This document shows positions 27,822-60,225 of a DNA stretch of 64,000 nt, one piece after another. A program made the translations under genes and the position numbers. Below the pieces are notes generated by a model. The model was not told where the DNA came from. It searched no databases and was given only the letters and a program-made list of their open reading frames with translations. Positions within the stretch are counted from its first letter, which is position 1. Every line of letters begins with the position of its first letter. The DNA comes from Candidatus Poribacteria bacterium (GTDB lineage: Bacteria > Poribacteria > WGA-4E > JAJDTR01), in assembly GCA_965222225.1 (NCBI GenBank), contig CBDCTK010000002.1:4102296-4166295 (forward strand). The letters are read 5' to 3'.

Positions 27822-27959
27822 GGGGAATAACGAGGGATCAAGGGAACGAATAGTGACTGCGATAGAGATCCATGAAGGTATATAGAAACACCAAAACCCC
27901 GTGCACATAAGCCCCAGCGCGGGATCAAACGAACGAATAGTGAGTGCGATAGAGATTCC
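27822..27959 (+). repeat. two copies of the modular dispersed repeat (27822-27871 and 27921-27959)
   Basis: GGGAATAACGAGGGATCAAGGGAACGAATAGTGACTGCGATAGAGATCC ... GGGATCAAACGAACGAATAGTGAGTGCGATAGAGATTCC. Confidence 0.6.
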
Positions 27960-28147
27960 GGCAGGTTGCAAGGTATCAGGAACCGCTTGAGACTTTTTCA
28001 ATGGTCAACCAAAAAGACCAAATGTCTAAAATCTCCCCCGCTTTTCTTCAACGCTTGATTGACACCGTTTGTTGTCTCGCTCAAATGTACAAAGTCGATC
28101 TAAGTCCGATTGTAACTTAATCAGGAATTGCGCGATTCGGTTTTATC

Positions 28148-29738: not shown

Positions 29739-30731
29739 ATGCCGTTAAAATCGAACTACAGACTGCTGTTTTTCGCAGGACTTTTTGCCATTCTATTGAC
29801 TGAGGCGATGGTCGCGAGAAACGCGCTCGCCTTCAACACAAGTCGGATTGTTTTTGCATCCCTGAGAGATGGCAACAAGGAAATCTATGTAATGGATGCC
29901 GATGGAGGAAACCAAGAAAACCTGACAAACAATCCAGCGTATGACGGCCAGCCGGATTGGTCCCCTGACGGGACGAAGATTGCATTCGTTTCCCGCCGAG
30001 ACGGCGTTTCTCAAATCTACGTAATGAACGCCGATGGAAAGAACCCGATTAGACTGACAGATGGACCGCGGTGGAAGCGGGATCCAGACTGGTCTCCCGA
30101 TGGGGGTAAGATTGCATTCACCGTCAACGCAGATTGGAAAAAAGAAGAGTGGTTAGATCATATCGCCGTGATGGATGCTGATGGAAATAATCGTGTGAAG
30201 CATGAAGACCACGCGATGCAGCCATCATGGTCTCCTGATGGGGGTGAGATTGCATTCACATCCTGGAGAGATGATTGGAACTGGGATATTTACGTGATAG
30301 GCGCTGACAGACGGGGGCTTAAAAGGGTGACGCACGATTTAGCGCCTAAATTCAGACCAGCGTTTTCTCCCGACGGGGGACGGATTGCATACATGTCCGA
30401 GCACGAAGGATTCAATCACATCTATGTGGTGGGGGCGGATGGTAGAAATCGGGTGAGGCTTACGCACAATCAAGAGAATCATTTGGACCCCGCATGGTCT
30501 ACCGATGGACAGGCGATTGCATATTATCTCTCGGAGGGCATCTGGCCCGGGAACTTTCGCAGCACGATGCACTTGATGGCCTCCAATGGAAGGTATATTA
30601 GGCAACTTAGCGATGGCCGTAATGCGCGCGATCTCTACCCCGACATTAGCCCGCTAGGATTTGCTGTGTCCCCAGCCGCGAAGTTTGTCACCATCTGGGG
30701 CAAGATCAAAATGCTAACATTGGGTCGTTGA
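29739..30731 (+). CDS. TolB-like PD40 beta-propeller secreted protein, paralog 1
   Basis: AGGAGG 7 nt upstream of ATG 29739 (ORF track starts at GTG 29709); signal peptide; six or more PD40 units (P.WSPDG.KIAF.S.RDG...IYVMDADG.N..RLT); conserved C-terminal tail VTIWGKIKMLTLGR. Confidence 0.75.
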   Translation: MPLKSNYRLLFFAGLFAILLTEAMVARNALAFNTSRIVFASLRDGNKEIYVMDADGGNQENLTNNPAYDGQPDWSPDGTKIAFVSRRDGVSQIYVMNADGKNPIRLTDGPRWKRDPDWSPDGGKIAFTVNADWKKEEWLDHIAVMDADGNNRVKHEDHAMQPSWSPDGGEIAFTSWRDDWNWDIYVIGADRRGLKRVTHDLAPKFRPAFSPDGGRIAYMSEHEGFNHIYVVGADGRNRVRLTHNQENHLDPAWSTDGQAIAYYLSEGIWPGNFRSTMHLMASNGRYIRQLSDGRNARDLYPDISPLGFAVSPAAKFVTIWGKIKMLTLGR

Positions 30732-30785
30732 TGATGTGTGCGACGCGGTTGACACATCCGCTTATTTTCAAAATAGGAGGAACAG

Positions 30786-31763
30786 ATGTCATTCACAGCT
30801 AGACGATTCTTGACTACAATGCTTGTCGTCTCCGTGTTAATCCAGATGCAGTTTGCTAAAAGCGGTTACGCCGCTCAGAGACCCAAGATTGCCTTCAGCT
30901 CTACGAGAGATGGAAACAGCGAAATCTACGTCATGGATATTGACGGACGTAATCATGTAAGACTAACGTATGATCCGGCGATTGACTATGATCCGTCGTG
31001 GTCTCCGAATGGCGATAGGATTGCGTTTGTCTCCAACAGAGACAATGGAGTTGAACAAATCTACGTCTTGGATTCTGACGGACGGAATTTGATGAGACTG
31101 ACAAACGAAGCGGTAAATCGGGAGCCGACGTGGTCTCCCACCGGAGAAAAGATTGCGTACACTCGCAGCAGAGGAGGACGTCAGGTTTGGGTAATGGACG
31201 ACGACGGACAAAACCAGACACGTTTGACTCAAATAGGCAAGAACCTTCACCCAGCCTGGTCGCCTGATGGGGTACGAATTGCCTTCGTATCCGTTAGGGA
31301 CGGAAGGACCGGTATATACGCAATGGATAAGAACGGTAATAATCAGGAAAGAATCACCCTACACATGGTGATTCCGGGCCATCCATCGTGGTCTCCCGAC
31401 GGTAAATGGATTGCGTATGAATCTCTTGACGAAGAAAGCAAATTTCAAATCTTTCTCGTGAAAACCGATGGCAGCGGTCTTTCGAAAAGGCTAACACACA
31501 ATCCACCGAATAAATGGCGTCCTGCATGGTCCCCCGATGGCGACACGATTGCCTACGTGTCAGTAGAGCCCTTTCCCTTCCAAAATATGACGATTCACTT
31601 GATGACTGCCCGTGGAAATCATCTTAAACAACTCAGTGAGGAGCACAATGGTTCGGATAACGATCCCGATTGGTATGCTCCGGTAGGATGGTCGGTGTCT
31701 CCCGCCGCAAACTTCATTACCATGTGGGGCGAGATTAAAAAGCCAACATCGGCTCTCCGTTGA
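30786..31763 (+). CDS. TolB-like PD40 beta-propeller secreted protein, paralog 2
   Basis: AGGAGG RBS, signal peptide, PD40 repeats, tail ITMWGEIKKPTSALR. Confidence 0.75.
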   Translation: MSFTARRFLTTMLVVSVLIQMQFAKSGYAAQRPKIAFSSTRDGNSEIYVMDIDGRNHVRLTYDPAIDYDPSWSPNGDRIAFVSNRDNGVEQIYVLDSDGRNLMRLTNEAVNREPTWSPTGEKIAYTRSRGGRQVWVMDDDGQNQTRLTQIGKNLHPAWSPDGVRIAFVSVRDGRTGIYAMDKNGNNQERITLHMVIPGHPSWSPDGKWIAYESLDEESKFQIFLVKTDGSGLSKRLTHNPPNKWRPAWSPDGDTIAYVSVEPFPFQNMTIHLMTARGNHLKQLSEEHNGSDNDPDWYAPVGWSVSPAANFITMWGEIKKPTSALR

Positions 31764-31813
31764 TGTGTACGGCGCGCTTGAAACTGCAGCTTTTTTTAAA
31801 AAAGGAGGAACAG

Positions 31814-32790
31814 ATGTCATTCAAAGCTAGACAACTGACGGGGACAGCGCTTGTCATCTCCCTGCTAATCCAGATGCACATTGCAGCAAGCAGTTACGCC
31901 TCTCGCAGAACCAAGATAGCCTTCACCTCTACGCGTGACGGGAATACTGAAATTTATGTCATGGATGGTGACGGGAGTAACCAGAGAAGAGTAACGGTAA
32001 ATCCAGCAAGTGATGAATATCCGGCATGGTCTCCCGACGGCAAAAAGATTGCCTTTGTTTCCAATAGAAACAACGTAAACAAAGATCACAAGCAAATCTG
32101 GGTGATCGACGCCGACGGGTAGAACCCGATTAGACTGACGGACGGGTTGGTGGACTCTTATCCGGATTGGTCGCCAGACGGCACGAAAATTGTGTACGAC
32201 GCCCATCTTCATCCAGAGGAACATCATGTAGCCCCCGCCGGGATTACTGTAATGGATGCGGATGGGAACAACAAGAGACTACTTACGGGTGAAGGCGCAC
32301 ATGCGTCGTGGTCGCCCGATGGAAAACGAATAGCATTTGTCTCCGGTAGAAATGAAAAAGTCAGTCACATTTTCGTAATGGATGCCGACGGACAGAATCA
32401 GATAGAGTTAACGCATGACTTCGTGCATAAACGTCTGCCATCATGGTCACCCGACGGGAAGCGCATCGCGTATGTGGGCGATAACGTGATTTGGGTGGTG
32501 GATAGCGACGGAGCGAACCAGAGGCAACTCACCAATATAATTACGGAAGAACACCCTACATGGTCACCGGACAGTGAATCCATTGCTTTTCACTCTTTTA
32601 CAAGGGATCGTGGAACTGGGATTTACATGGTGGATGTAACTAACGGCGCTGTCGACGTTTTGCAAGTTGATCCCGCGTTCTTTAATCTCGACCCGATTGG
32701 CTCTATCCCGGAGGACTCTCCGTTTCGCCGGAAGGTAGCCGGATTACAATTTGGGGCAGGATGAAGAGTACCGCGCTCAGCCTCCGGTGA
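31814..32790 (+). pseudogene. TolB-like PD40 paralog 3 with in-frame TAG (32120..32122, Lys in paralog 4) and a 1-nt deletion near 32690
   Basis: IDADG*NPIRLTDG vs paralog 4 IDADGKNPIRLTDG; conserved tail ITIWGRMKSTALSLR only readable in the +1 frame after CCGATT vs CCGGATT difference. Confidence 0.7.
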
Positions 32791-32952
32791 GGGGTGCGCT
32801 TGGTCGGTGGCAGTTAACGTTGTCTGAACTGTGATTCATGAGAATACGGGATTACCTTGATTGTACGTGATTAGTTGCGAGTCATGAGGCGACTATTCCG
32901 CATCTTGCAGCCACTAGGAATTAGGGAAAAAACCTAGTCTATAAGAAAAAAG

Positions 32953-33105
32953 GGATGAACGGAGTGAACAGCGAGTGGGATGGACTATCGCACGGGATTT
33001 GCTATCGATCAAGTGAGCGAAAAGCGAACGCGATAGCCAGTCTTGCTCCTTATTCAGTCGCTTGATCGATATTCACTCACTTGACCGATAGAGGTCCCTT
33101 GCGCT
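32953..33105 (+). repeat. modular dispersed repeat, composite copy with internal inverted words
   Basis: GATCAAGTGAGCGAAAAGCGAACGCGATAG ... CGCTTGATCGAT ... TTCACTCACTTGACCGATAGAGGTCCC. Confidence 0.5.
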
Positions 33106-33175
33106 AAAAACTGTCGGTTGATGTCTAGAATATTGTAATTCGCATATTAATTTTGCTCTGACTAAGGAGGAAAAA

Positions 33176-34162
33176 ATGACATTCAAAGCTAGACGCTTGT
33201 CCGTGGCAGCGCGTGTCATGTCTCTGTTAATACAGATGCACATTGCAGAAAACGGTTACGCCTCTCGCAGAACCAAGATCGCCTTCTCCTCTATGCGTGA
33301 CGGGAATTTGGAAATTTATGTCATGGATGGCGACGGGAGAAACCAGAGAAGAGTAGCGGTAAATCCGGCAAGGGACGAATATCCGGCATGGTCTCCCGAC
33401 GGGAAAAAGATTGCGTTTGAATCCAATCGAAACAATGTAAACAAAGATCACAGGCAAATTTGGGTGATCGACGCCGACGGGAAGAACCCGATTCGACTGA
33501 CGGACGGGTTGGTGGACACTCATCCGGATTGGTCGCCAGACGGCACGAAAATTGTGTACGACGCCTATCTTGTTCCAGAGGACCATAATTTAGCACCCGG
33601 TGGGATTGCTGTAATGGATGCGGATGGGAACAACAAGAGGTTAGTTAAGAATGCAAGAGGCTCACAATCGTCCTGGTCGCCCGATGGAAAACGAATAGCA
33701 TTTATCGCCGGTAAAAATCCTGGTGACGACTCTCAAATTTACGTAATGGATGTCGACGGACGAAATCGGTTGCAGTTAACGCATGACTTTGTGCACAAAC
33801 GTTTGCCATCATGGTCACACGACGGGAAGCGCATCGCGTATGGTGGCGACAACGTGATTTGGGTGGTGGATAGCGACGGAGAGAATCCGAGGCAACTCAC
33901 GTGGCATGTTACGGAAGAACACCCTACATGGTCACCGGACAGCGAATCCATCGCGTTTCACTCTTTTGGAAGGGATCCTGGAATTGTTGGGATTTACACG
34001 GTGGATGTAACTATCGGCGCTGTCGACCCTTTGCCAAGTGATCCCGGCTTCCAGAATTACTATCCGGATTGGCTCTATCCCGGAGGACTCTCCGTTTCGC
34101 CGGAAGGTAGCCAGAATACAATTTGGGGCAGGATAAAGCAATTGGCGGTCAACCTGCGGTAG
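33176..34162 (+). CDS. TolB-like PD40 beta-propeller secreted protein, paralog 4
   Basis: AGGAGG RBS, signal peptide, PD40 repeats, tail NTIWGRIKQLAVNLR. Confidence 0.75.
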   Translation: MTFKARRLSVAARVMSLLIQMHIAENGYASRRTKIAFSSMRDGNLEIYVMDGDGRNQRRVAVNPARDEYPAWSPDGKKIAFESNRNNVNKDHRQIWVIDADGKNPIRLTDGLVDTHPDWSPDGTKIVYDAYLVPEDHNLAPGGIAVMDADGNNKRLVKNARGSQSSWSPDGKRIAFIAGKNPGDDSQIYVMDVDGRNRLQLTHDFVHKRLPSWSHDGKRIAYGGDNVIWVVDSDGENPRQLTWHVTEEHPTWSPDSESIAFHSFGRDPGIVGIYTVDVTIGAVDPLPSDPGFQNYYPDWLYPGGLSVSPEGSQNTIWGRIKQLAVNLR

Positions 34163-34305
34163 TTTGCACACCGAATCGGTGAAATCGAAGGGATTGCGGC
34201 GTGCCGCTCCGCTACCTAGTTCATTGGTGGTACATCCGTGCGGCAAGCTTACCACATTAAAGGAGGGAGAACATGCGAATCAAGTCGATAAATAAACGAG
34301 AGTAT

Positions 34306-34713
34306 TCACACAAAGATAGATAAGGCAATCTTCTGATACCGACGGAAGACCTCTGGGTTGGTCAAAGCAGTCCATAACTTCATGGCATTGTCCACCATCT
34401 CAAGTTTCTTGGATACTATTTTGGTGCGGCGTGTGAATCGTCCAAGATGATGGCGTGTATTGCTGTTATCACGTTCGACTGTTGCTGTCCCTGATTTCCC
34501 GATGTGATGACGCTCCGCAGGAAGTACCTTGGCAAACGCTTCCCAATTGTCAGTGTAATACTGGCAATCACTTAAGTGTTTCACTTTGTCGAATAGCCGT
34601 CTGAAGGTATCAGCATCACGACCACCGATAACCCAGGCAACGGTTTTGCCTGTTTCACGAGAAACTGCTTTGTGAATCCATCTTTTGTTTTTTTTGACCC
34701 GATAAAATGCCAC
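34306..34713 (-). CDS. insB: IS1-family InsB-like transposase ORF, expressed by -1 frameshift from insA
   Basis: KKNKRWIHKAVSRETGKTVAWVIGGRDADTF resembles IS1 InsB [26 protein letters not shown]; stop lies inside the terminal IR as in IS1. Confidence 0.7.
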   Translation of the reverse strand: MAFYRVKKNKRWIHKAVSRETGKTVAWVIGGRDADTFRRLFDKVKHLSDCQYYTDNWEAFAKVLPAERHHIGKSGTATVERDNSNTRHHLGRFTRRTKIVSKKLEMVDNAMKLWTALTNPEVFRRYQKIALSIFV

Positions 34714-35024
34714 ATCTCATCAAATTCCAATTCACGGGTATTGATTGGAATCTCAGGCTCCGACAACAGGGCTGCTTCCTTTGCAGGCCATTTTTGAACA
34801 GTACTTGGCGATACATTAAACAAGTTGGCAATAGTGCCGTAAGACGCTTTTGCAAGCGAGTAGAGAATTACTGCAAAAGCACGCTTGATGGTGGTTTGAG
34901 GGTTGGTTCTCTCGTCTCCCTCAACGAAATTATAACCGCACGTTTTACAACGGTATCGCTGTTTGGAACGAACGAATCCGTTTTTCGTGACTTCCGAACT
35001 TTGACAGTTCTTACAGTTTGACAT
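34581..35024 (-). CDS. insA: IS1-family InsA-like protein (zinc finger + HTH)
   Basis: CKNCQSSEVTKNGFVRSKQRYRCKTCGYNF zinc finger then HTH, then ELEFDEMWHFIGSKK at the slippery run, as in IS1 InsA/InsAB'. Confidence 0.7.
   Translation of the reverse strand: MSNCKNCQSSEVTKNGFVRSKQRYRCKTCGYNFVEGDERTNPQTTIKRAFAVILYSLAKASYGTIANLFNVSPSTVQKWPAKEAALLSEPEIPINTRELEFDEMWHFIGSKKTKDGFTKQFLVKQAKPLPGLSVVVMLIPSDGYSTK
34688..34695 (-). promoter_or_regulatory. programmed -1 ribosomal frameshift site (A8 run, TCAAAAAAAAC) between insA and insB
   Basis: minus strand UCA AAA AAA ACA in the insA frame becomes AAA AAA AAC AAA AGA UGG in the insB frame after -1 slip; same A6C-type site as in IS1. Confidence 0.6.
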
Positions 35025-35083
35025 AATATCTCCTTCCTGACCTTTCTGGTTAGTTAGAAGAATTATATCATAAATCTATCTAT

Positions 35084-36067
35084 ATGGCAATACTCTCAAG
35101 TAAACTTCTGTTTTTCATGGGACTATGCACATCCTTGGTGAGTGGGGAGCTATTGGTGGGAACCGGATTTACCTCGCACCACAAACCACAGATTGCATTC
35201 ACTTCTATAAAAGATAGGAATGCTGAAATCTATGTGATGGATGCCGATGGAGAAAACCAAATCAGGTTAACAAAACATGTGGCGAGTGACCGTCATCCCT
35301 CGTGGTCTCCCGATGGGGAGCGGATTGCATTCACTTCCAATAGAATTAGTATTGGCGGTGAAATGTACGTGATGGATAGCGATGGAAAGAATCTGATTAG
35401 GTTAACAAATGGAGAATGGGACACAAATCCAGCGTGGTCTCCTGACGGAAAAAAGATCGCCTTCGAGTCCTCTCCAGCGAAAGGTAATTCTGAGATATAC
35501 GTGATGGATGCCGATGGAAGAAATCAGACCCGACTAACAGATAGTCCGAGGTATGACGGACACCCGTCATGGTCGCCCGACGGTCAAAGGATTGCATTCG
35601 TATCGCAAAGGGGTGGTTTCAGGATTCAAATCTACGTGATGGACAGCAACGGCGAGAATCAGACGAGATTAACACACGATGGCGGGAATAAGCGTGAGCC
35701 CTCATGGTCTCCTGACGGGCAAAGCATCGCTTTCATGCTCAACAATTTTGCCTCGATTCAAATCTACGTGATGGATAGCGACGGCAAGAATCGGACAAGG
35801 TTAACAGACGGAAGGCACGACTGGAGTCCAGCTTGGTCGCCGGACGGCGAGATGATTGCATACGAGTCGTGGATAGGGGAAGACTTCCTTAGCAAAATCC
35901 ACTTGATGACTGCCGACGGAATGTACCTCAAACAACTCAGCGACTTGCACGAACGTGGAGATTACGATCCTGACTGGTTTGATCCTGCATCGCTTGGTGT
36001 GACTTCCGTAGGCATCACAATTACAATCTGGGGCAGGATCAAGAGATTAGCGTTGAACCTCCAGTAA
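35084..36067 (+). CDS. TolB-like PD40 beta-propeller secreted protein, paralog 5 (start codon lies inside the IS1 terminal repeat)
   Basis: signal peptide MAILSSKLLFFMGLCTSLVSG, PD40 repeats, tail ITIWGRIKRLALNLQ. Confidence 0.7.
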   Translation: MAILSSKLLFFMGLCTSLVSGELLVGTGFTSHHKPQIAFTSIKDRNAEIYVMDADGENQIRLTKHVASDRHPSWSPDGERIAFTSNRISIGGEMYVMDSDGKNLIRLTNGEWDTNPAWSPDGKKIAFESSPAKGNSEIYVMDADGRNQTRLTDSPRYDGHPSWSPDGQRIAFVSQRGGFRIQIYVMDSNGENQTRLTHDGGNKREPSWSPDGQSIAFMLNNFASIQIYVMDSDGKNRTRLTDGRHDWSPAWSPDGEMIAYESWIGEDFLSKIHLMTADGMYLKQLSDLHERGDYDPDWFDPASLGVTSVGITITIWGRIKRLALNLQ

Positions 36068-37912: not shown

Positions 37913-39058
37913 TTGTTAGTTCCCAATTCCCCAGAACCGCGTAATAAGAGTATGCCAATGGAAATGAAATTTAACGTCGGAATTGTCGGAGCCCGTCGAG
38001 GCACTGGGCACATTCTACCGTTTAGCACGATTACTGAAACGGAGGTGGCTGCGCTCTGTGATTTGAATGAGGAAACACTTCACACCGTCGCGACAGCGCA
38101 CGGCATAGCCAAACAATTCACGGACTATGAGAAGCTACTTGAGGACGACGATATACAGATTGTGGTGTTGGCGACTCCCGAAAATCTCCACGTCCCACAG
38201 ACCATCGCGGCGTTAAACGCGGGAAAGCATGTAATCAGTGAAGTAACGGCAGCGGTATCGCTCGATCAGTGTGCGGAATTGGTTCGGGCGGTCAGACAGA
38301 GCCGCACGAAATATATGATGGCTGAGAATTACTGCTACCTCAAATCAAATGTGTTGATTGGCAACATGGTGCGGCAGGGGATGTTCGGGGAAATATATTT
38401 TGGCGAAGGGGAATACCTCCATAGTATCAAATCGCTTCATCACGATAGCGAAGGCAATCCAACGTGGCGCTACTACTGGCAAGTGGGCGTGAATCGTTGT
38501 AACTACGCGACACACCACCTCGGTCCTGTGCTGCAATGGTTTAACGAACGGGTCGTAAGCGTTTGTTGCTTGGGAACCGGTGTGCACACCGACCCTGAAC
38601 ACACAATGGAAGATACAGTGATGATGCTATGCAAGACGGATAGCGGCGCACTCATTAAGATCCGAGTAGATATGTTATCCAACCGTCCTGCCAACTCGTA
38701 CTACAGTCTTCAAGGCACAAAAGGCTGTTATGAAGGCACACGGGGCCTTGGAGATCAGCCGAAAATTTGGTTAGAAGAGTCAGGTCGTGGTGATGAGTGG
38801 ATGCCGCTTTCAGCGGTTGAGGAAGAATTCCTGCCCGAGCGATGGAAAAACCCGCCTCAAGAAGCCGCACATCTAACCGATGGACTCGGCGATTACTTCG
38901 AGCTACGGGACTTTGTGGATTGCATCCTCAAGGACACTGAACCGCCGCTGGATGTCTATACGGCGCTGGATTTTACGGTTCCGGGCTTGGTCTCTGAGCA
39001 GTCGATTGCCAATGGTGGCGCTCCGGTTGAAGTTCCTGACTTCCGAAACATGGACTGA
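37913..39058 (+). CDS. Gfo/Idh/MocA-family NAD(P)-dependent oxidoreductase (start probably Met at 37952/37958)
   Basis: KFNVGIVGARRGTGH Rossmann start and Gfo/Idh/MocA C-terminal domain. Confidence 0.8.
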   Translation: MLVPNSPEPRNKSMPMEMKFNVGIVGARRGTGHILPFSTITETEVAALCDLNEETLHTVATAHGIAKQFTDYEKLLEDDDIQIVVLATPENLHVPQTIAALNAGKHVISEVTAAVSLDQCAELVRAVRQSRTKYMMAENYCYLKSNVLIGNMVRQGMFGEIYFGEGEYLHSIKSLHHDSEGNPTWRYYWQVGVNRCNYATHHLGPVLQWFNERVVSVCCLGTGVHTDPEHTMEDTVMMLCKTDSGALIKIRVDMLSNRPANSYYSLQGTKGCYEGTRGLGDQPKIWLEESGRGDEWMPLSAVEEEFLPERWKNPPQEAAHLTDGLGDYFELRDFVDCILKDTEPPLDVYTALDFTVPGLVSEQSIANGGAPVEVPDFRNMD

Positions 39059-39345
39059 CTTCAGCCGGAGCCCATTCATGGTAGTCGTATTTGATATTCA
39101 GAGTTCCTACCCATAAAGGTGGCCTATCGCCCACCATGTCTATTAAGGCACGCTTCAGACGGCAAAACACACGGATTTAAACCAGGAATCCGAGACAACA
39201 AAACCGTTTGTTCACTGACGAAAGTATGGAAATGAATCTCCACGAAATGAAATGCAAAGCCCTGCGGGAAGAAATGAAAAGGCGTGGACTGAAGGGATAT
39301 TAATCGTTAAATAAAGCCCAACTCATCCAATATATTTCAACCGGC

Positions 39346-40215
39346 GTGCACCCGATTCGGCACGTTGCCGAATCTAGTGTGCGGTCGAATAAAAAGGTAC
39401 AGACAGTTATTCCAAGAGTTGAGAATCATTCACCTATATCTCCGGCAGCCACGCAGAATGGTTTTCCCATAAACCAAATCTTAGCCGGTGATTGTCTAAA
39501 TGTACTTCCTTCCCTTGCTAGCAATGTTTTTGATTGTTGTATCGCCGATCCCCCGTTCAATATGTCACAAAAAAAAGGATTGGGCTGGGCGTTCAGTTCC
39601 CATATTACGATGCAGGAAGGGTGGGATATCTTCTCAAAAGACGAATATTCCCAGTTCACACTCGATTGGGTCTCCGAGGTTCTGAGAGTCGTCAAGCCGA
39701 ACGGGAATATCTTTGTTTTCGGATCGTTTCACAGTATTTTTACGTTAGGATTTATCCTTCAGAACATATTTGATCGGCGCATTATCACCCAGATTGTATG
39801 GTATAAGCCGAATGCACAGCCCAATATCACCTGTCGCATGTTTACGGAATCAACTGAATTCATTATTTGGGCAGTTAACAATGAGCGTAAAAAGGCAAAA
39901 AACTGGACATTCAATTATCATGAGATGAAGGCGATGAATAATAACAAACAGATGCGAAACATGTGGGAAATCCCGCTGACGAAGCCGTCTGAACGAAAAT
40001 ACGGAAAACATCCTTCACAGAAACCGCTAGCAGTGGTTGAACGGCTAATTTTGGCGGGCACGAACGAAGACGACCTGATTCTAGATCCGTTTTCCGGAAC
40101 CGGAACAACCGGAATTGGTGCACAAAAGAACAATCGAAAATGGGTGATGATTGAGAAAGAAGAATTCTATAATCAGATTGCTCGACGGCGACTTGAAGAG
40201 TTAGCCGGCGAATAA
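39346..40215 (+). CDS. type II DNA methyltransferase, beta-class (N6-adenine or N4-cytosine)
   Basis: motif IV DCCIADPPFNM precedes motif I ILDPFSGTGTTG (beta permutation); markedly AT-rich relative to flanks; stop overlaps the start region of the endonuclease gene. Confidence 0.8.
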   Translation: MHPIRHVAESSVRSNKKVQTVIPRVENHSPISPAATQNGFPINQILAGDCLNVLPSLASNVFDCCIADPPFNMSQKKGLGWAFSSHITMQEGWDIFSKDEYSQFTLDWVSEVLRVVKPNGNIFVFGSFHSIFTLGFILQNIFDRRIITQIVWYKPNAQPNITCRMFTESTEFIIWAVNNERKKAKNWTFNYHEMKAMNNNKQMRNMWEIPLTKPSERKYGKHPSQKPLAVVERLILAGTNEDDLILDPFSGTGTTGIGAQKNNRKWVMIEKEEFYNQIARRRLEELAGE

Positions 40216-40242
40216 TGAGTGTTCATTATAGAGGAGTTTGAC

Positions 40243-40854
40243 ATGCAAAGGCAGGAAGCACTCTCGAAACTGTCAGAGCTTATCAACCAAGACCTGCGTT
40301 TTCTTGCGAATCAATATGAAGTAACGGTTTTCAAGGGAGACAAACCAAATAAGGGTTGGGCATGGCACGTTCTTGAGCGTCATCTTAACTTACCAATCAA
40401 CTCTGCTCAAGCACCAAACTTTGGTTCTTGGGAATTGAAGGTAGTTCCTCCGAAGTATCTAAAAAGTGGAAAGTTGACAATCAAGGAAACAATGGCAATT
40501 ACGATGATTGATGCCTACAATGTTGAACATACCGATTTCCAAGATAGCCATCTGTTCACCAAACTCAGGAAACTAATAGTTGCTGCCAGAATCTGGGAGA
40601 GTCAGCAGGAAGAACGATCTGTGCTTCATATTGTGACAACCTTTGACCTTGACAATCCCAAGATATACAGTCAAATTAAAGCGGATTATGATTTAGTCAG
40701 AGAGACAATCCGCACGAAAGGTTTTTCGGCTTTGACCGGAAAAATGGGGGTATATATTCAACCAAGGACAAAGGGGCCTGGACATGGTAGTATGTCACGA
40801 GCGTTTTACGCAAGAACCACCTTCCTTAAGCAGTTCATTTTTCCGTCGCTTTGA
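40243..40854 (+). CDS. MutH/Sau3AI-family endonuclease, predicted restriction enzyme partner of the methyltransferase
   Basis: NKGWAWHVLERHLNL...NFGSWELKVVP...KETMAITMID...GVYIQPRTKG...RAFYARTTFLKQF parallels E. coli MutH DKGWIGVLLEIWLG...LGVELKTIPV...ETTFVCVAP...EYLQIRPKAA...RGFYLKKNF including the D...E-x-K core; GAGGAG RBS before ATG 40243. Confidence 0.7.
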   Translation: MQRQEALSKLSELINQDLRFLANQYEVTVFKGDKPNKGWAWHVLERHLNLPINSAQAPNFGSWELKVVPPKYLKSGKLTIKETMAITMIDAYNVEHTDFQDSHLFTKLRKLIVAARIWESQQEERSVLHIVTTFDLDNPKIYSQIKADYDLVRETIRTKGFSALTGKMGVYIQPRTKGPGHGSMSRAFYARTTFLKQFIFPSL

Positions 40855-40968: not shown

Positions 40969-42927
40969 ATGGACACAAAACCAACCTTCCAGACCATTAC
41001 CCAGAGTAAAACTTCAACTCCAGTAGATCCTGTAGTAGCGGCGGAGGTTGGTCTAGAGAGGGGCAAAATCGGCAAACTGCATCTGGAGCGGAATGGCGCA
41101 GCCATCCCACCCTTGTCAACACCGATTTTGTACCCCGTAGTTTCATTCATGACCGGTTCGACGCCGCGCGGCGGGGGTTTGTGGAAGTACCTACTTCGAG
41201 ATTTCATGAAGAACGATGTGCCGATGTTGTCGCAAGTCCTGCACTTTCTGGATTTCCCTATCAACGGTAAGAGTTTGGCGAAATGGCGAAGTAAAACCGT
41301 TCGTGAGTGGTATCGTGAGGTCAATGGACCATACGAAGCGCCGCTCCTGCTCGATTCCGGCGGATTCAAACTGCTTTATAACACGGGGCTAGATCTCTCT
41401 GAGTTCGGCATTAACGCAGAAACGGAAGCGGATGATATACTCGCACTCCAGGACGACATGGGTGGGGACATGATTGCTTCTCTGGACTACCCGCTTCCAC
41501 CGGGGCTGGATCGATCGGAAGCCGAAAGGCGGATGAACCGCAGCCTGAAAAATGCCTTTAGGGTAGCGGAATGCATCGCCGATCGCCGTAACCCGCCATA
41601 TCTGTACATCTGTTGTCATGGACAATCCCGGGTTGACATTGAAGAGTACGTCCAGAAGGTTTTTGACAGGCTTCTGGGAGTCTTACCATCGTTTGGACTT
41701 GCGGTTGGCTCTCTCGTACCGCTGCGAGGAAAAAAGGATTCGGAAGTATTGGAGCGGATATTGGGAGTGGTAAACGGAATACCGGAATCGGAGCGACATC
41801 GGACGCCGATTCACGCCTTCGGCGTTTCAGGTGAACTTGCCCCCATACTCGCTTACATGGGAATTGATAGCTTTGACAGCACAAGTTACATTCAAGCTGC
41901 TCGCGGCCTCAACTATTCCCATCCCGAAACGCGGCGGAAGCAGAAAATTATGGAGTTAGACGAAACGGTGTGCACTTGCCGCATCTGCCGCGAGGTGTCG
42001 CTTGATGAAATGCACCTTGCCCTGTCGGATGCAGTAAGTTATAGGAAGACTTCAACCGGGAAGTACAAGAGCGAATACTATGCCGCCATCGCTTTGCACA
42101 ACTTTGAGATGGAAGCGGGGTTACTTTCCCGTATGAAAGAAGCTATTGAGAGCGAAGACTCGCTTGAAGAGTTGGTTCGTCACGCGCAGGTAGGACGAGG
42201 CATCAATAGAGCAGTAGGCTGGCTGCTTGAGAATGATGAGATTTTTGCCAGTAAGATGGCGAAAACTGTCTTTGAGGCCACCGATTCACGGGGCAAATCC
42301 GCCCTTCCAATTGGGCGGAATCCGTATCAACTCGAACTCTTCACGGGATCCTTGACAGCGGAAGGAAATGGCGAGGAATCGCGATCAATCTCGCTCAATT
42401 ATACACCTGATTCCTTTTCCATTCCCGATGATTATGCTCCCCCTAAGGACAAAGACGTACTGCTGGTTATTCCGTGTGCCGGGAAAAAGCCGTATTCACT
42501 GTCGCGCACACACGCTATTGTCAATACCAAACTTCAGACGGCCTTCGGTGAAGCGGGAACTTCCATCCACAGAATTACCCTTTCGGGACTTTACGGACCC
42601 GTGCCGGAGGAATATGAATCTGAAGAAGCTGTCCTCCGATACGATTTTCAGTTGTCACCGAGAAATACCGCGAAAATACAGCTCGGTGCGGATCGGCTCT
42701 GCGCCTATCTGGAGAAGTATGCCAATCACTACAAGCTGATTGTCGGATACGCGACAAGCCAAGCTTATCGCAAAGTGTTTGAACTCACCCGATCCAGACG
42801 GTCAGACTTTGTTTTGCTGCCGACGAAACCGAAACAGAATCGACTCACCGAGTTTTTCCGGCACGTTCACCTTGATGAACTCGTTGAGGTTTTGTCAACT
42901 GTAGCGCAACCACTGAGCAAAGAATAA
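40969..42927 (+). CDS. tRNA-guanine-transglycosylase (TGT) superfamily protein with 250-aa C-terminal extension; candidate DNA/RNA 7-deazaguanine base-exchange enzyme
   Basis: LLLDSGGFKL (TGT DSGGFQ Asp), DMIASLDYPL (substrate Asp), YMGIDSFDST (nucleophile GxDxFD), zinc site VCTCRICREV ... IALHNF (CxCxxC...HN); C-terminal 400-652 carries a PCAGKKPYS motif of unknown function. Confidence 0.75.
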   Translation: MDTKPTFQTITQSKTSTPVDPVVAAEVGLERGKIGKLHLERNGAAIPPLSTPILYPVVSFMTGSTPRGGGLWKYLLRDFMKNDVPMLSQVLHFLDFPINGKSLAKWRSKTVREWYREVNGPYEAPLLLDSGGFKLLYNTGLDLSEFGINAETEADDILALQDDMGGDMIASLDYPLPPGLDRSEAERRMNRSLKNAFRVAECIADRRNPPYLYICCHGQSRVDIEEYVQKVFDRLLGVLPSFGLAVGSLVPLRGKKDSEVLERILGVVNGIPESERHRTPIHAFGVSGELAPILAYMGIDSFDSTSYIQAARGLNYSHPETRRKQKIMELDETVCTCRICREVSLDEMHLALSDAVSYRKTSTGKYKSEYYAAIALHNFEMEAGLLSRMKEAIESEDSLEELVRHAQVGRGINRAVGWLLENDEIFASKMAKTVFEATDSRGKSALPIGRNPYQLELFTGSLTAEGNGEESRSISLNYTPDSFSIPDDYAPPKDKDVLLVIPCAGKKPYSLSRTHAIVNTKLQTAFGEAGTSIHRITLSGLYGPVPEEYESEEAVLRYDFQLSPRNTAKIQLGADRLCAYLEKYANHYKLIVGYATSQAYRKVFELTRSRRSDFVLLPTKPKQNRLTEFFRHVHLDELVEVLSTVAQPLSKE

Positions 42928-52137: not shown

Positions 52138-53620
52138 AGGGGATCAAGTGAGTGAATAGCGAATGATCAACTGAGCGAACAGCGAAGGCGATAGAGTTCC
52201 CATAGAGATCCCTCCTCGCCCGCTCCCTTTCGGCAGAAATCCCTATATCCAACCACGCCCAGTCCATTGCGAACCACAATCCTGCGAGGCTATATGTAGG
52301 GTGCGCACCGCGCACCAGCCTTTTCGTCGTACTCGCGCGATAGAGTTCCTACCAGCCTTCCTATGCACCCGTAGGAGCGGCCTCGCGGTCTCGCTTGCGC
52401 AAGCCGGAGCGTCTGTCGTGAATATGCAGGTTGCGGGGCGGTGGAAATCCCCTCGGATGCCGGCGCATTATGCCCGCGCCGAGTTGGCAGAGCAAGGAGC
52501 AATTGCACGCTTCAAATACGGGAAAGACGGTGGGGGGTAGCGAACCGGGAAGGATAGTTGAGGGAAAGTACATATGTAGGGTGGGCACTGCCCACCATTT
52601 TTCTTAGGTGCGATTAACCGCCTGTTTAAGCCCGTGGGTTGGGATGAACGAAACCGAGAATTCCGGTGTCGACACACCAAACTTCCTCAAACTGGCTGAC
52701 CCGTCGGATAGCATCAAGGAAAGAGTGAAACCCAACTTCACCCCCTACGTCATCGGACACCTCCCCGGCAAACGTTGGGTTTCACTAGGATCACCGAGAA
52801 TTTATTCCGAATAGCGTCCCACAATCGTCGTGTCATGCTTGGTGTTTTTGCTTGTTACCGTTCAACCCAACCTACGCGCTTCCCACCATCTCTTATGGGG
52901 TACGATAGCCGATCCCGATAGAAATCCCTCAAGCAAACCAGATCGTGGGGGCGAGGTCTCCTCGCCCATTCTGTTGCGCACCCTAATCCCGTGCGGTAGA
53001 GCGTCCATTCCGCCAACCCCACACCTCCGCCACACCAATAAACGGCACATGCTCCTCCCACCGCCGACTCAACCCGCCGTTCCTAATCCACGTAATCCAA
53101 TAATCCATCAAGCGAGTGAATAGATCGTGTGACCGAAAAGGATCAAGGGCGCGAATAGCGACCGCGATAGAGATCCGCCATGTCTGTCGCAAACCGATAG
53201 CCCCGTCTTGCACTCCAGCTGAGAACAAGCGACTGAATGAGGAGTGATCGAACCAATGGACACTGAATACGATAGGGAATCCTGATAGTATTTCCCACTG
53301 CGATGGAGTTCTTAAAATGAAGTTAAACGTCGCGCCTTGCACTCCAGCGGAGTGCGATGTCGATAGAACTGCAATGCGTACAATCTTCGCGCTCCAAAGG
53401 AGCGCAATGTCGGTAGGATGGCGATTCGATAAGGATCAAACGAGTGAACAGTGGTCTCCGTAGGGGCGCGATCAACTGACTAGATAAGGAAGGATCAAGT
53501 AAGTGAATAACGATCAACCGACTGATTAGGGAGGACGATAGTAGATTCTGCGCGATAGAATTCCTATAGAGATCCCCCCGCGCCCAATCCCGCGCGATAG
53601 ATTTCTCATAGCAATCACGA
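52138..53620. repeat. 1.5-kb gene-poor tract densely packed with the modular dispersed repeat (at least six copies in both orientations)
   Basis: e.g. 52138-52212 GGGGATCAAGTGAGTGAATAGCGAATGATCAACTGAGCGAACAGCGAAGGCGATAGAGTTCCCATAGAGATCCC; 53107-53180; 53222-53290; 53410-53620; only short overlapping ORFs. Confidence 0.6.
52301..52540 (+). pseudogene. C-terminal fragment of a tyrosine recombinase (integrase) gene
   Basis: SGLAVSLAQAGASVVNMQVAGRWKSPRMPAHYARAE...ARFKYGKDG parallels the C-terminus of the intact integrase at 58873..59784 (GHSLRIGSAVSLAEAGASVKEVQRAGRWQEPTMPARYVREA...ARYKAGK). Confidence 0.55.
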
Positions 53621-53907
53621 CCGGGTTTCCATGACGGCCTGACTTCCAACAGCAAATCGAATCTTCCTCTTTATAGCCAAACGCCCTGCAGTAGTTCTAT
53701 TTGCTTGTTCGCTTTCCTCGGTGCTATACTTGCCACGCTATTCTACTTCGGTACAATAGCTGTTGTCAAATAAGCGATAGAGCAATTTAGCGCCATCGTC
53801 GGTTTCACGAGGCGCGCTGCTGACAGAAATCGAACCCAATGTGTCTTATCATACGTTCTATCGACTAATCGACTCCCGCGGCAAAACCAATCCGTGAAGG
53901 AAAAAAC

Positions 53908-54993
53908 TTGAGAATTGAAAACGTCGACTTTCCCAAACCGTTGATAGAAGCCTTGCATGACAACGAACTCGTAGTGTTCGCTGGGGCTGGCGTTTCAATC
54001 GGTAAACCTGCCCGTCTGCCCAGTTTCAGATCGTTGACCAATATTATCGCCGAAGGTACCGGGAAAACGGCGCGCGATGGCGAGACGCCTGAGCAATTCC
54101 TCGGAAGATTAAAAGACCAAGGCGTAAAAGTGCATGTGCGCGCTGCGCGACCGCTTTCTCAAGAAGGTTTGCAGGCTACGGCCCTTCATCAAGATCTTCT
54201 TAGACTCTATCCTAAAACAGCGCCCGTTCGCCTCGTCACCACTAATTTCGATCCCCTGTTTGAGCAGGCAGCCTTTGAGCAGGCAGCCGAGGAAATATTC
54301 GACAGTTCGCCAGAAGTATTCCGGGCACCCGCGCTGCCTTTGGGACGTGAGTTCGACGGCATTGTTCATGTTCACGGTTCAGTCCGTCGCCCTAACGAGA
54401 TGTTACTTACGGATAGAGATTTTGCTCGCGCTTATCTGACCGATGGCTGGGCTCGACGCTTTCTCGTCGAACTTTTCAGTAATTTCCGAATCCTCTTTGT
54501 TGGCTACAGTCATGACGACACGATTATGAATTATCTGGCCCGCGCGCTTCCTGCCGGTTCGGAATACCAACGTTTCATTTTGACCGGTTCCGAAGACAAG
54601 AAACCCTCTGATGATTGGCGTTCACTAGGGATTGAACCGATAGTCTACCCTCAGGCTAACGAAAATGACTATAGTGAACTCGACACAAGCATTCATGGCC
54701 TCGCCGAACTTGTACAGCGACGCGTTGTTGTTTGGAATGATGAAATAACCAATATAGCGCAAGTTCCGCCTCCCACTGACGAGAATAAGGCAGATCTCAT
54801 TGAGTACGCGCTAAGCGATGAAGTAAACACAAGGTTCTTTGCAAAAGCGGCTTCAGATCCTGATTGGATTGACTGGCTCGACGAGCGTGGACATTTGACC
54901 GCGCTATTCCGCGACGATATACTCACCGCGCAAGCCAAAACCTTGTCTTGGTGGTTGGCAGATCGATTTCTTTTCGGAATTAGTAGCTTGTAG
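53908..54993 (+). CDS. SIR2-like (DHS-like NAD-binding, SIR2_2 type) domain protein; candidate NADase defence effector, probably the 5' part of an IS-disrupted longer gene
   Basis: LVVFAGAGVSIGKPARLPSF (GAGxS), VTTNFDPLFE (TTNYD) and VHVHGSV (catalytic His) are the three SIR2_2 hallmarks; ORF ends abruptly 20 bp before an IS1595 element. Confidence 0.75.
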   Translation: MRIENVDFPKPLIEALHDNELVVFAGAGVSIGKPARLPSFRSLTNIIAEGTGKTARDGETPEQFLGRLKDQGVKVHVRAARPLSQEGLQATALHQDLLRLYPKTAPVRLVTTNFDPLFEQAAFEQAAEEIFDSSPEVFRAPALPLGREFDGIVHVHGSVRRPNEMLLTDRDFARAYLTDGWARRFLVELFSNFRILFVGYSHDDTIMNYLARALPAGSEYQRFILTGSEDKKPSDDWRSLGIEPIVYPQANENDYSELDTSIHGLAELVQRRVVVWNDEITNIAQVPPPTDENKADLIEYALSDEVNTRFFAKAASDPDWIDWLDERGHLTALFRDDILTAQAKTLSWWLADRFLFGISSL

Positions 54994-54999
54994 CTTTTA

Positions 55000-56215
55000 G
55001 ACTGACGACAAACATAAAACTTGGTACCCTGTCGTAAATCTTTTCGTCACACGTAGATGTCCATAGTGACTATTCTTCTCGTAGGAGTTTGCTATGGACA
55101 TTTTGAATCTTATGAAAGAGTTTCCAAATCAAGAATCTTGTCTCAGATTTATAGAGGAAAAACGTTGGAAGGACGGTGTTTGCTGTATCCACTGTGGCAG
55201 TGAAAAAGTTGGACGCAAGAACAAAAACGACATTACTACTGGTTGGAATTGCTACGATTGTGAATCTAGCTTTTCGGCTACAGCAGGAACCATCTTCCAT
55301 GGTACCAAGATACCTCTCCAGAAATGGTTTTTGGCTATCTCAATTCTTTCCAATGCCAAGAAAAGCATATCGAGTTGTCAGCTTGCTCGTGACTTGGACA
55401 TGAATCAAAAGTCCGCTTGGTATATGGCAATGCGCCTCCGTGAGAAAATGAGTGATAGTGATGAATTGCTGAAAGGGATAGTTGAAGCGGACGAAACCTA
55501 TGTCGGCGGCAAACCCAGAGCAAAATCTAAGAGAGGTAGAGGCACAAATAAATCTCCCGTCATCGGCGTAGTCGAGAGAGGCGGTCGGGTGGTTGCTAAA
55601 TTCATGAAGGTTCTATCTGGTGAAAATATCAGAGAATTCATCCTTAGCAATGTCTCACCCGATGAGTCTATTCTTATGACTGATGAATTTCGCTCTTACA
55701 ATAGTCTGGACGAAGATATCGAAAGACATGTTATCCATCACCAAGAGAGATATGTTTCTGAGGACGGCGTAACTCACACCAACACCATCGAGTCGTTTTG
55801 GGCTTGTGTCAAGAGGTCATTCTACGGAACGCATCATCACTACAGCAAGAAGTGGCTGCCACTGTATATCATGGAGTCTTGCTGGAAATATAATCGCAGA
55901 AAAGATGATGAGATTTTCATAAGATTTTTTGATGAATGCTTCACCTGAGCCACATGAATTGTTTGGCTATCGGTATATTCTGTCAACGACAACATCATGG
56001 TGTGCTGAAAATCCCATAGTGTTGGAAATTAAAATCCCGCAGATAACCCGCAATGCTCCCGCGAGCATGTACAAACGCTTGGTCAACATGATATGCCTCC
56101 ATTTCTCTCTTATAGAGATGTATTTTAGTGTGAATCAAGATTCCGAACACTGTCTAAAATGATTGTACATTAAGAAGAGAAAAGCAAGCAAATCGACCAA
56201 AAAGCAGTTAACTAC
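55000..56215 (+). mobile_element. IS1595-family insertion sequence (boundaries approximate)
   Basis: single transposase gene with N-terminal CxxC zinc ribbon and E-x-DETYVGG motif; I could not define the terminal inverted repeats by eye. Confidence 0.55.
55094..55948 (+). CDS. IS1595-family transposase
   Basis: CIHCGSEKVGRK...CYDCESSF zinc ribbon; EADETYVGGKPRAKSKRGRG; DDE-type C-terminal region. Confidence 0.8.
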   Translation: MDILNLMKEFPNQESCLRFIEEKRWKDGVCCIHCGSEKVGRKNKNDITTGWNCYDCESSFSATAGTIFHGTKIPLQKWFLAISILSNAKKSISSCQLARDLDMNQKSAWYMAMRLREKMSDSDELLKGIVEADETYVGGKPRAKSKRGRGTNKSPVIGVVERGGRVVAKFMKVLSGENIREFILSNVSPDESILMTDEFRSYNSLDEDIERHVIHHQERYVSEDGVTHTNTIESFWACVKRSFYGTHHHYSKKWLPLYIMESCWKYNRRKDDEIFIRFFDECFT

Positions 56216-58680: not shown

Positions 58681-58810
58681 GGGTGGAATCTGCGATCAAG
58701 CGACTGAATAAGGAGCGATCAAAGGAATGGATTATGACTGCGATAGGAATCTCTATAGAAAATCCCACGCGATAGAGCTCCCATAGCAAATCGCGTACGA
58801 TAGAAAGTCC
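58681..58810 (+). repeat. modular dispersed repeat, multi-word copy
   Basis: GGGTGGAATCTGCGATCAAGCGACTGAATAAGGAGCGATCAAAGGAATGG...GCGATAGAGCTCCCATAGCAAATCGCGTACGATAGAAAGTCC. Confidence 0.6.
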
Positions 58811-58872
58811 TTTGGCGCCAGTAGGGCGTGATTCGATACTGTTCAAATTCGTCGTATTCCGCTCTCGCCTTC

Positions 58873-59784: not shown

Positions 59785-59956
59785 GATAAACCCCTCGTCA
59801 GATTTATACCACCGTTGCCATATTCATCGACCGCCCAAGCCGTCGAGCATAACTGGCACCCCAAGTGAACATGGCAACACGAATATCGTTACATACAGCC
59901 AGTGTTGAGGAATCTCGACCTTTCTGCCTTGGAGCCTGTTTGAAAAGTACAGTTTG

Positions 59957-60225
59957 TAGGGTGCGATCAAAGGAATGAATAATGACTCCGATAGAGATCC
60001 CCTGCGATCAAGCGAATGAATAATAAGCGATCAACTGAACGAATAGTGAAGGAGCAACTGACCGATAGGGAAGGCGGTAGAGATCCCATAGAAAGTCCTG
60101 ATAGAGATCCTACCAGCCTCTAAAAGCCCCCAGAGTGGGATCAAGGGAGATCCAATGAGCGAATAGCGAATGCGATAGGGATCCCTGATAGAGACTGCGA
60201 TAGAGATCCTAACAGGTATGTAGCA
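59957..60225 (+). repeat. modular dispersed repeat, long multi-word copy
   Basis: GGGTGCGATCAAAGGAATGAATAATGACTCCGATAGAGATCCCCTGCGATCAAGCGAATGAATAATAAGCGATCAACTGAACGAATAGTGAAGGAGCAACTGACCGATAGGG...GCGATAGAGATCC. Confidence 0.6.

Follow-up and report, generated by a model that had tools for sequence, protein, structure and literature searches.

What is a pair of AT-rich genes, one resembling a DNA methylase and the other the nuclease MutH, doing in a genome of the Poribacteria, a lineage of sponge symbionts? The genes occupy positions 39346–40854 of a 64 000-nucleotide stretch of contig CBDCTK010000002.1 from a Candidatus Poribacteria assembly (the whole stretch is called the window hereafter). 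An original prediction, made from the letters alone, had taken them for a type II restriction–modification (R-M) pair, probably acquired horizontally and directed at GATC. Whether that identification and that target hold, how long the pair has been in place and whether it still works are the points considered here. Our analysis indicates with high confidence a GATC-directed Type II R-M cassette that has long resided in this lineage, leans towards its nuclease being impaired in the strain cluster to which the window belongs, and makes the account that joins these two statements a probable one. The cassette would thus be a known kind of system, probably decaying in this strain.

The methylase–nuclease pair

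Both genes lie on the forward strand, with 27 nt between them. The methylase gene (M), as called by NCBI and ENA, runs from a GTG at 39346 to 40215 (289 amino acids, comprising the catalytic domain) and ends with a TAA at 40213–40215. The nuclease gene (R) lies in an open reading frame (ORF) at 40219–40854, its true start being the ATG at 40243 (40243–40854; 203 amino acids), which is the same in all homologues. A ribosome-binding site, GAGGAG (40231–40236), stands 6 nt 5′ of this ATG; the original prediction had described both this site and the M stop just upstream of the R frame, and the sequence agrees on both. The identical 289-amino-acid methylase product is recorded on two contigs, and an exact look-up of the window nuclease gave no record. 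Scans for promoters (five promoter-like sites against 3.8 expected) and terminators (one terminator-like site against 2.6 expected) were uninformative.

The R product, the restriction component of the pair, is a single domain of the MutH/Sau3AI family. It matches PF02976 (MutH) of Pfam at 1e-11 (44.9 bits against a gathering cutoff of 23) and REase_II of PADLOC at 2e-12, and its relatives are already named ‘MutH/Sau3AI family endonuclease’ by NCBI. The best Foldseek matches of its AF2 model (pLDDT 95.2, pTM 0.90) are the MutH–DNA complexes 2aor and 2aoq, with template-modelling (TM) scores of 0.83–0.84; Sau3AI reached 0.72 and MvaI/BcnI 0.39–0.45. Family membership was assigned on the Pfam score and this fold together. 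A profile built from 65 family sequences gave full-length matches only to Sau3AI (3e-21) and MutH (5e-19 and 8e-18), while BcnI and MvaI matched weakly (E 1e-4 and 7e-3) and in the N-terminal catalytic stretch only. Relatives of the nuclease number 5285 in 90% clusters; at a threshold of E ≤ 1e-3 the subfamily comprises about 500 clusters of 50% identity, with members almost all close to 200 amino acids in length.

An hhalign comparison with Escherichia coli MutH (probability 98.9%) covers MutH residues 14–223 and includes E-L-K. The full-length alignment proposed at the outset therefore stands, except that the catalytic Asp70 of MutH is Asn59 here. The active-site stretch (40375–40440) holds E45 (40375–40377), N59 (40417–40419), E64 (40432–40434) and K66 (40438–40440), which align with E56, D70, E77 and K79 of MutH respectively. 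Elsewhere K37/G38/W39 correspond to K48/G49/W50, H103 to H112, K107 to K116, R175/K177 to R184/K186, and Tyr189 (40807–40809) to Tyr212 (RAFYAR versus RGFYLK). Of these MutH residues, H112 and K116 are described as placing the attacking water and the DNA in position (bioRxiv 10.64898/2026.04.21.719898), and a part in sensing adenine methylation is ascribed to Tyr212 (PMC3848065). The family shows no variation at E64 and K66, and E45 and Y189 are conserved in at least 90% of it. From the MutH catalytic set E45, E64, K66 and K107 are present, and the position of D70 is taken by asparagine in about three-quarters of the fetched subfamily members (approximately 158 Asn and 43 Asp among the fetched family proteins). 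The catalytic loop covaries at this point (window 40417–40428), reading P-N-x-G-S-W-E-L-K in 141 proteins and P-D-x-G-D-W-E-L-K in 27, with minor variants; its two acidic residues are either both present or both absent, which suggests that the family holds two differing metal-binding arrangements. Since Asn-type nuclease genes sit inside intact methylase cassettes across phyla, we read Asn59 as a presumably functional variant (the locus search used 10 closer sequences and the pattern N[FL]GSWELK, and all loci so fetched are Asn-type by construction).

The window protein was ruled out as a MutH orthologue by both equivalog models (NF003458, 38.2 bits against 243; TIGR02248, 22.8 against 229.9), and as a Sau3AI-type two-domain enzyme by its length of 203 amino acids and by NF040973 (54.8 bits against 300, covering profile positions 5–192 of 475). 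With MutH of E. coli and Haemophilus influenzae it shares its size, its fold and the functional residues other than Asp70; however, it lacks the loop of some 14 residues that precedes the Y212 strand, and the protein is encoded in a mobile methylase cassette whereas MutH stands alone, with dam unlinked. With Sau3AI, LlaKR2I and DpnIII it has in common a homologous catalytic domain, a P-x-T-K-G loop, a methylase alongside and, presumably, GATC as target. Sau3AI-type enzymes, about 470–530 amino acids long, add a MutH-like effector domain without catalytic function and have C5-cytosine methylase partners (PMC4471560; bioRxiv 10.64898/2026.04.21.719898), in contrast to the single domain, the adenine-type methylase partner and the Asn at the family's catalytic Asp found here. 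BcnI and MvaI are distant structural relatives that share the D/N-x4-E-x-K spacing and offer a model for a monomer cutting the two strands successively, but they recognise CCSGG and CCWGG, pair with N4-cytosine methylases and are weakly similar to the window nuclease. The cassette is mildly unusual in its single MutH-sized domain, its adenine methylase partner and its Asn for the catalytic Asp. Its nuclease documents a very widespread subfamily of single-domain restriction enzymes of MutH size, biochemically uncharacterised, whose members have adenine-methylase partners and are mostly Asn-type.

The M product matches PF01555 of Pfam at 7e-50 over profile positions 2–220 of 221, and MTase_II of PADLOC at 4e-75. 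It is a beta-class N6_N4 DNA methyltransferase, with motif IV preceding motif I. Catalytic motif IV, D-P-P-F (39547–39558; aligned to DPPY of CcrM), and motif I, DPFSGTGTTG (40084–40113; aligned to DPFFGVGTTG of CcrM), which binds S-adenosylmethionine (AdoMet), are both complete, as a Type II R-M methyltransferase requires. The closest solved relative is CcrM (6pbd, 2e-47 over residues 43–285), the cell-cycle methylase of Caulobacter directed at GANTC, which is likewise beta-class with a DPPY-type motif IV. The window methylase was nevertheless ruled out as a CcrM orthologue, its score for NF050803 being far below the cutoff (224 bits against 830; profile positions 2–250 of 350). CcrM possesses a C-terminal DNA-binding domain of about 80 amino acids which the window methylase lacks, and CcrM is an orphan, whereas the window methylase is, or was, cassette-bound. 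In place of this C-terminal domain the Poribacteria methylases carry an N-terminal SAP-like extension, for which relatives give matches below the Pfam cutoffs to SAP (E 0.009) and Rho_N (E 0.03). This SAP-like N-terminus is kept in orthologues down to 66% identity; many beta-class methylases of the cassette from outside Poribacteria are 277–300 amino acids long and have no such extension.

Partner genes and the recognition site

Eighty loci were fetched from the more than 570 matching species-level genomes and combined with six earlier look-ups, and neighbours were classified at 85. A methylase adjoins the nuclease homologue in 81 of these 85 loci, in many phyla, which is the conserved linkage of separate nuclease and methylase genes that a Type II R-M system requires. 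Together with the Pfam, NCBIfam and PADLOC results and the fold, this linkage supports the original identification as a type II R-M pair. The adjacent methylase is beta-class like that of the window in 54 loci and of the Dam family in 31, a permuted PF01555 methylase usually following the nuclease in the latter; both classes occur together around the nuclease in four (L039, L071, L072 and L085). Nucleases that stand beside Dam-family methylases are 61–70% identical to the window protein. Four of these Dam-family partners match PF02086 at 1e-60 to 1e-72, and three score 281–312 bits in TIGR00571 (cutoff 115). The one compared with solved structures, from L027, is closest to DpnM (6e-55) and then to E. 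coli Dam (4e-39); it retains the recognition hairpin FNGLYRVN..EFNVPFG.

In the DpnII/MboI arrangement the nuclease lies between a Dam-type methylase and a second one, and homologous cassettes in which a Dam-family methylase, with or without a PF01555 methylase, flanks the nuclease resemble it, as would the target site and the protection by N6-methyladenine (m6A). DpnII/MboI systems, however, combine the alpha-class DpnM and the beta-class DpnA methylases with a nuclease, whereas the window cassette has a beta-class methylase only; the window holds no Dam-family ORF, so this copy lacks that mark of a DpnII/MboI-like cassette. Moreover, the DpnII/MboI nucleases belong to a different family (Pfam DpnII, PF04556) that does not have the MutH fold.

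GATC is strongly indicated as the target, because the characterised relatives MutH, Sau3AI, LlaKR2I and DpnIII all cut GATC (PMC4471560), because the DNA-contact and methyl-sensing residues of MutH are kept, because Dam-family methylases serve as partners and, as a weak sign, because GATC is depleted under a Markov model. A MutH-like R-M pair from Flavobacteria and a protist mitochondrion has also been assigned to GATC, by REBASE comparison (PMC8099122). Under the maximal-order Markov model just one other 4-bp palindrome of the window is more depleted than GATC (245 against 397 expected; observed/expected ratio (O/E) 0.62). Some points tell against this assignment. The raw count of 245 is close to the zero-order expectation of 250, so that the avoidance signal depends on the model, and GGCC is far more depleted than GATC. 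The closest solved methylase, CcrM, recognises GANTC and not GATC, and with the metal-binding Asp70 of MutH being Asn across the subfamily the chemistry may differ from that of MutH. The assignment as a whole draws on homology and partner genes. The GATC claim of the original prediction thus finds indirect support, from the nuclease profile, the MutH residues and the Dam-family partners.

Two kinds of other site were considered. GANTC is suggested by CcrM being the best PDB and NCBIfam match of the methylase, and CCWGG or CCSGG by the many nuclease homologues that match PF15515, the MvaI/BcnI family of Pfam, with its D-x4-E-x-K spacing, and by depletion of CCWGG in the window (O/E 0.63). The fold and profile of the nuclease, together with the Dam-family partners, led us to reject both. 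The structural similarity to MutH and Sau3AI is far above that to MvaI/BcnI, whose profile matches are limited to the N-terminal catalytic stretch, and nucleases as much as 61–70% identical are partnered with Dam-family adenine methylases, the tested one of which matches DpnM best. The methylase, for its part, has neither the C-terminal domain of CcrM nor a score near the CcrM-family cutoff, and GANTC is barely depleted in the window (O/E 0.88). We consider a target other than GATC improbable.

Read as a GATC system, the pair would be an ordinary two-gene defence system, Type II and Dam-sensitive. The methylase, through its DPPF motif, would use AdoMet to place an N6-methyl group on the adenine of GATC in both strands. 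The nuclease would bind unmethylated GATC as a monomer and nick 5′ of the G through the E45/N59/E64/K66/K107 site, two such nicks yielding a double-strand break. Host DNA would be spared because Tyr189, the counterpart of MutH Tyr212, is predicted to clash with methylated adenine.

The same residues could belong not to a restriction enzyme but to a true MutH that serves methyl-directed mismatch repair alongside a Dam-like methylase encoded in the chromosome. The homology is full-length, all MutH functional residues but Asp70 are there, and the pair is widely kept within Poribacteria. Against this, both MutH equivalog cutoffs were failed, the distribution is patchy and always within methylase cassettes, often with two methylases, and the nuclease has been lost in sister lineages and is probably decaying here. 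MutH is, furthermore, placed by the literature only in a group of Gammaproteobacteria (PMC4390886). We regard a role as true MutH as highly improbable. Nor does the locus show the orphan MutH of Dam-directed mismatch repair that the original prediction had set against its own reading, the gene being operonic with a methylase.

Variants of the cassette were seen in other genomes. Methylase and nuclease share one uninterrupted reading frame in each of two separate Poribacteria genomes (L009 5247–6935; L061 5957–7627), possibly encoding M–R fusion proteins of about 555 amino acids. Some Poribacteria have extra MutH-like paralogues beside the cassette (L009 7313–8950; L026 7694–8356; L030 5934–6566 and 7668–8351). 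The one in L009, downstream of the cassette and of the Asp type, is a fusion of SIR2_2 (1e-9) with a MutH-like domain (4e-8), and appears to be a separate defence architecture that employs this nuclease domain. In cassettes of other phyla, three families of small ORFs (174–198 amino acids) with no Pfam match lie between the Dam-family methylase and the nuclease (for example L033 5627–6148, and L035 5669–6253 and 6398–6991; homologues in about 15 loci), and these could encode controller proteins or a second nuclease.

The distribution of short words in the window brought two further observations. A dispersed intergenic repeat of about 50 nt (D5/D14/D16; consensus near GGGATCAA..GAACGAATAG.GA.TGCGATAGAGATCC) carries one or two GATC per copy, with copies at 27831–27966, 33002, 36243, 52140–53498, 58692–60217 and 61705. 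Its 30.6 GATC per kb against 3.8 per kb for the window agrees with the GATC-rich repeat family noticed originally, and if GATC is methylated its copies would form clustered methylation sites. GGCC is strongly under-represented (82 against approximately 233–258 expected, O/E 0.35), and CTCGAG and GGGCCC do not occur (9.2 and 3.6 expected respectively), a hint of further restriction systems in other parts of the genome, e.g. HaeIII-like or XhoI-like.

History of the cassette in Poribacteria

The M and R genes together have a GC content of 43.2% where the window averages 50.4% (SD 2.8), and in a sliding-window comparison the pair falls at the 1.4th percentile among 1509-bp windows of the 64-kb stretch. 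The flanks lie at 51–55%, so that the low GC of the pair and the level of its surroundings were both correctly judged by eye in the original prediction. GC at third codon positions (GC3) is 0.46 in M and 0.42 in R, as against 0.53–0.61 in flanking genes, the value for M being the second lowest of 35 long ORFs in the window.

This composition would fit a recently imported genomic islet, with low GC as the mark of its arrival. The nuclease family occurs in more than 570 species-level genomes of many phyla with 61–70% identity across phyla, and an identical 1.5-kb allele in strains with about 5% flank divergence (see below) speaks for exchange between close strains. Cassette GC, however, is lower than that of the flanks in 67 of 68 loci (mean −7.4 points) and follows host GC (r = 0.85), and the ORF list and Pfam scan showed no integrase, transposase or tRNA at the cassette edges. 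Almost no homologues were found in plasmid and phage collections, with one weak match in each.

Gene order speaks further against recent import. A block of M, R and a TGT/DUF5591 gene recurs in Poribacteria with differing genes on both sides (L001, L008 and L012 as opposed to L004–L007 and L018). An orthologous methylase, with or without the nuclease, adjoins the TGT gene in Poribacteria whose TGT proteins are just 64–71% identical, and the Poribacteria methylases score 456–585 bits against each other but at most 222 against those of other phyla. Because the GC deficit is family-wide, tracks host GC and accompanies synteny in Poribacteria, the low GC is not evidence of recent arrival, which we accordingly hold to be unlikely; a family-wide deficit of about 7 points means that the low GC of such a cassette should not be read as recent transfer. 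The comparisons instead mark the cassette as an old, vertically inherited resident of the Poribacteria clade, 5′ of the TGT/DUF5591 gene. The original description as ‘horizontally acquired’ is therefore apt for the family, whose cross-phylum identity fits horizontal spread, and not for a recent event at this locus: the family moves between phyla and, in this Poribacteria clade, passes by vertical inheritance. A literature search found no paper on the cassette in Poribacteria.

In three Poribacteria loci (L089, L090 and L091) an orthologous methylase lies directly 5′ of a TGT gene whose product is 64–69% identical, and the nuclease is gone; the M stop overlaps the TGT start in L089 and L090. 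As these loci keep the methylase beside TGT without the nuclease, the nuclease has been lost repeatedly while the methylase persists. In this clade the SAP-like N-terminus of the methylase is clade-specific, and this feature, together with the methylase kept by TGT after nuclease loss and with frames that overlap, could be taken to mean that the cassette has been domesticated, as a resident Dam-like epigenetic methylase with a MutH-like methyl-directed nickase and not as defence. Such domestication, which we consider very improbable, would place MutH-type strand discrimination outside Gammaproteobacteria.

The gene downstream of the window cassette (40969–42927, forward strand) encodes the TGT + DUF5591 protein of 652 amino acids. 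The closest matches to it are ArcTGT (1e-21) and ArcS (9e-22), both archaeal tRNA enzymes, with DpdA marginal; the family is seemingly confined to, and widespread in, Poribacteria. By these matches it appears to be an archaeal-type 7-deazaguanine transglycosylase in bacteria, with tRNA or DNA as candidate target. It adjoins queD/PTPS in L087–L090, and in L006 (8782–10687) it is split into ORFs of 179 and 407 amino acids, likely a frameshift or pseudogene. The recurrence of M–R–TGT with different flanks made this gene a candidate third component of the system. It was rejected in that role in general, since its association with the cassette is confined to one Poribacteria subclade, its GC of 51% is host-like, and queD–TGT occurs with neither M nor R in L087 and L088; a lineage-specific link between M and TGT is possible.

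Lesions and substitutions in this strain cluster

The original prediction placed the methylase start at 39346, and this is not the ancestral one. The frame begins at an ATG at 39226, and relatives encode uninterrupted methylases of 327–345 amino acids from the equivalent position. In the window the ancestral ATG and 25 codons (39226–39303, forward strand, in frame with M) are cut off by a premature TAA at 39301–39303. This nonsense codon arose from a Ser codon by a C>A change (TCA>TAA), the codon being TCA or TCG in five of five aligned relatives. The severed segment encodes the SAP/Rho_N-like helix-hairpin-helix N-terminus, MEMNLHEMKCKALREEMKRRGLKGY. As the 289-codon ORF from GTG 39346 retains the whole catalytic domain, the truncated methylase may still work, if translated.

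A second lesion lies in the nuclease gene, where codon 41 (40363–40365, forward strand) is TGG for Trp through a GGG>TGG change on the window branch. Of 215 family proteins, 213 have Gly at position 41, which corresponds to Gly52 of MutH, as do 88 of 88 locus ORFs; in this set Trp was seen only in the window protein. MutH, Sau3AI and BcnI have Gly there too. Judged by this conservation, G41W is probably damaging.

Three strain-level contigs from another sample, L093, L094 and L095, form a strain cluster with the window. L093 has the methylase TAA and nuclease W41, L094 the TAA and L41, and L095 an intact methylase (345 amino acids, with the Ser codon) and W41. Both the TAA and the position-41 lesions are therefore real population variants, and the nuclease lesion is independent of the methylase lesion, since L095 combines W41 with an intact methylase. 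The flanking genes of the window and of L093 differ by about 5%, with nonsynonymous:synonymous counts of 3:44, 15:34 and 24:51 that point to purifying selection. Window positions 38855–40354, by contrast with this 5%, show one mismatch in 1.5 kb, which implies a recent recombinational spread of the allele. L094 and L095 carry mosaic methylase alleles, and homologous exchange between co-occurring strains has a hotspot at the cassette.

The nuclease of the window differs from that of L093 at seven nonsynonymous codons and one synonymous codon. Across the four sequences of the W41/L41 clade the changes are W41L, D101Y, F105L, T106S, E140K, I156S, G166E and T184M plus one silent change. This ratio of 8:1 departs from the 42:129 of the flanks (Fisher p = 1.6e-4) and is compatible with neutrality (p = 0.70). 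Alleles of the methylase catalytic domain differ by 3:18.

We incline, by a small degree, to the view that the nuclease is impaired in this strain cluster. Several observations pull the other way. The nuclease ORF is still intact, with a strong ribosome-binding site; the 8:1 ratio consists of nine changes, several of them from contigs of 5–16x coverage from a single sample, and diversifying selection instead of decay could have produced it. A branch-wise count with outgroups gave nonsynonymous/synonymous 5/10 for the nuclease on the deeper window branch, with no clear relaxation. For the account of the methylase, no clear start signal precedes GTG 39346.

At the far end of these doubts is a fully working GATC R-M system, in which G41W is tolerated, ribosomes re-initiate at GTG 39346 once past the 25-codon leader to make the methylase catalytic domain, and noise or diversifying selection accounts for the surplus of nonsynonymous changes in the nuclease. 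Both frames remain open, and the GAGGAG is in place before the nuclease. Cassette methylases of 277–300 amino acids without an N-terminal extension are common outside Poribacteria, the 3:18 ratio points to purifying selection on the methylase catalytic domain between alleles, and the TAA/W41 allele, identical over 1.5 kb in two strains with some 5% flank divergence, spreads successfully. Set against this are the invariance of Gly41 in approximately 300 homologues as well as in MutH, Sau3AI and BcnI, the renewed change at site 41 from W to L, the alteration of a second conserved glycine (G166E) and the contrast of the nuclease ratio with the flanks. The SAP-like N-terminus, moreover, is conserved in orthologues down to 66% identity, and sister lineages are already without the nuclease. 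A fully working system is doubtful on balance, though it is the most serious of the alternatives we considered.

On the reading of an impaired nuclease, its activity was probably lost or strongly lowered first, by G41W and then by changes that are nearly all nonsynonymous. The methylase would afterwards have lost its N-terminal SAP-like segment to the nonsense codon with its catalytic domain intact and, freed to erode, would be heading to the orphan state of L089–L091. Loss of the nuclease first, followed by an orphan methylase, is the usual route of R-M decay, and the strain contigs would offer a natural snapshot of that expected order, with the methylase eroded or orphaned next. An annotation should label the locus a routine Type II R-M pair and note that the methylase is N-terminally truncated and the nuclease probably impaired.

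Two features elsewhere in the window complete the description. A SIR2_2-domain protein (9e-23) adjoins an IS1595-family transposase (1e-36) at 53869–54990 and 55085–55945, and the lowest GC of the window, 42.2% around 55000, is found at these genes; the region may be another defence or mobile islet. At 29880–36067, the direct-repeat families D1–D8, D12 and D13 are not non-coding but coding repeats of tandem PD40/TolB-like beta-propeller genes.

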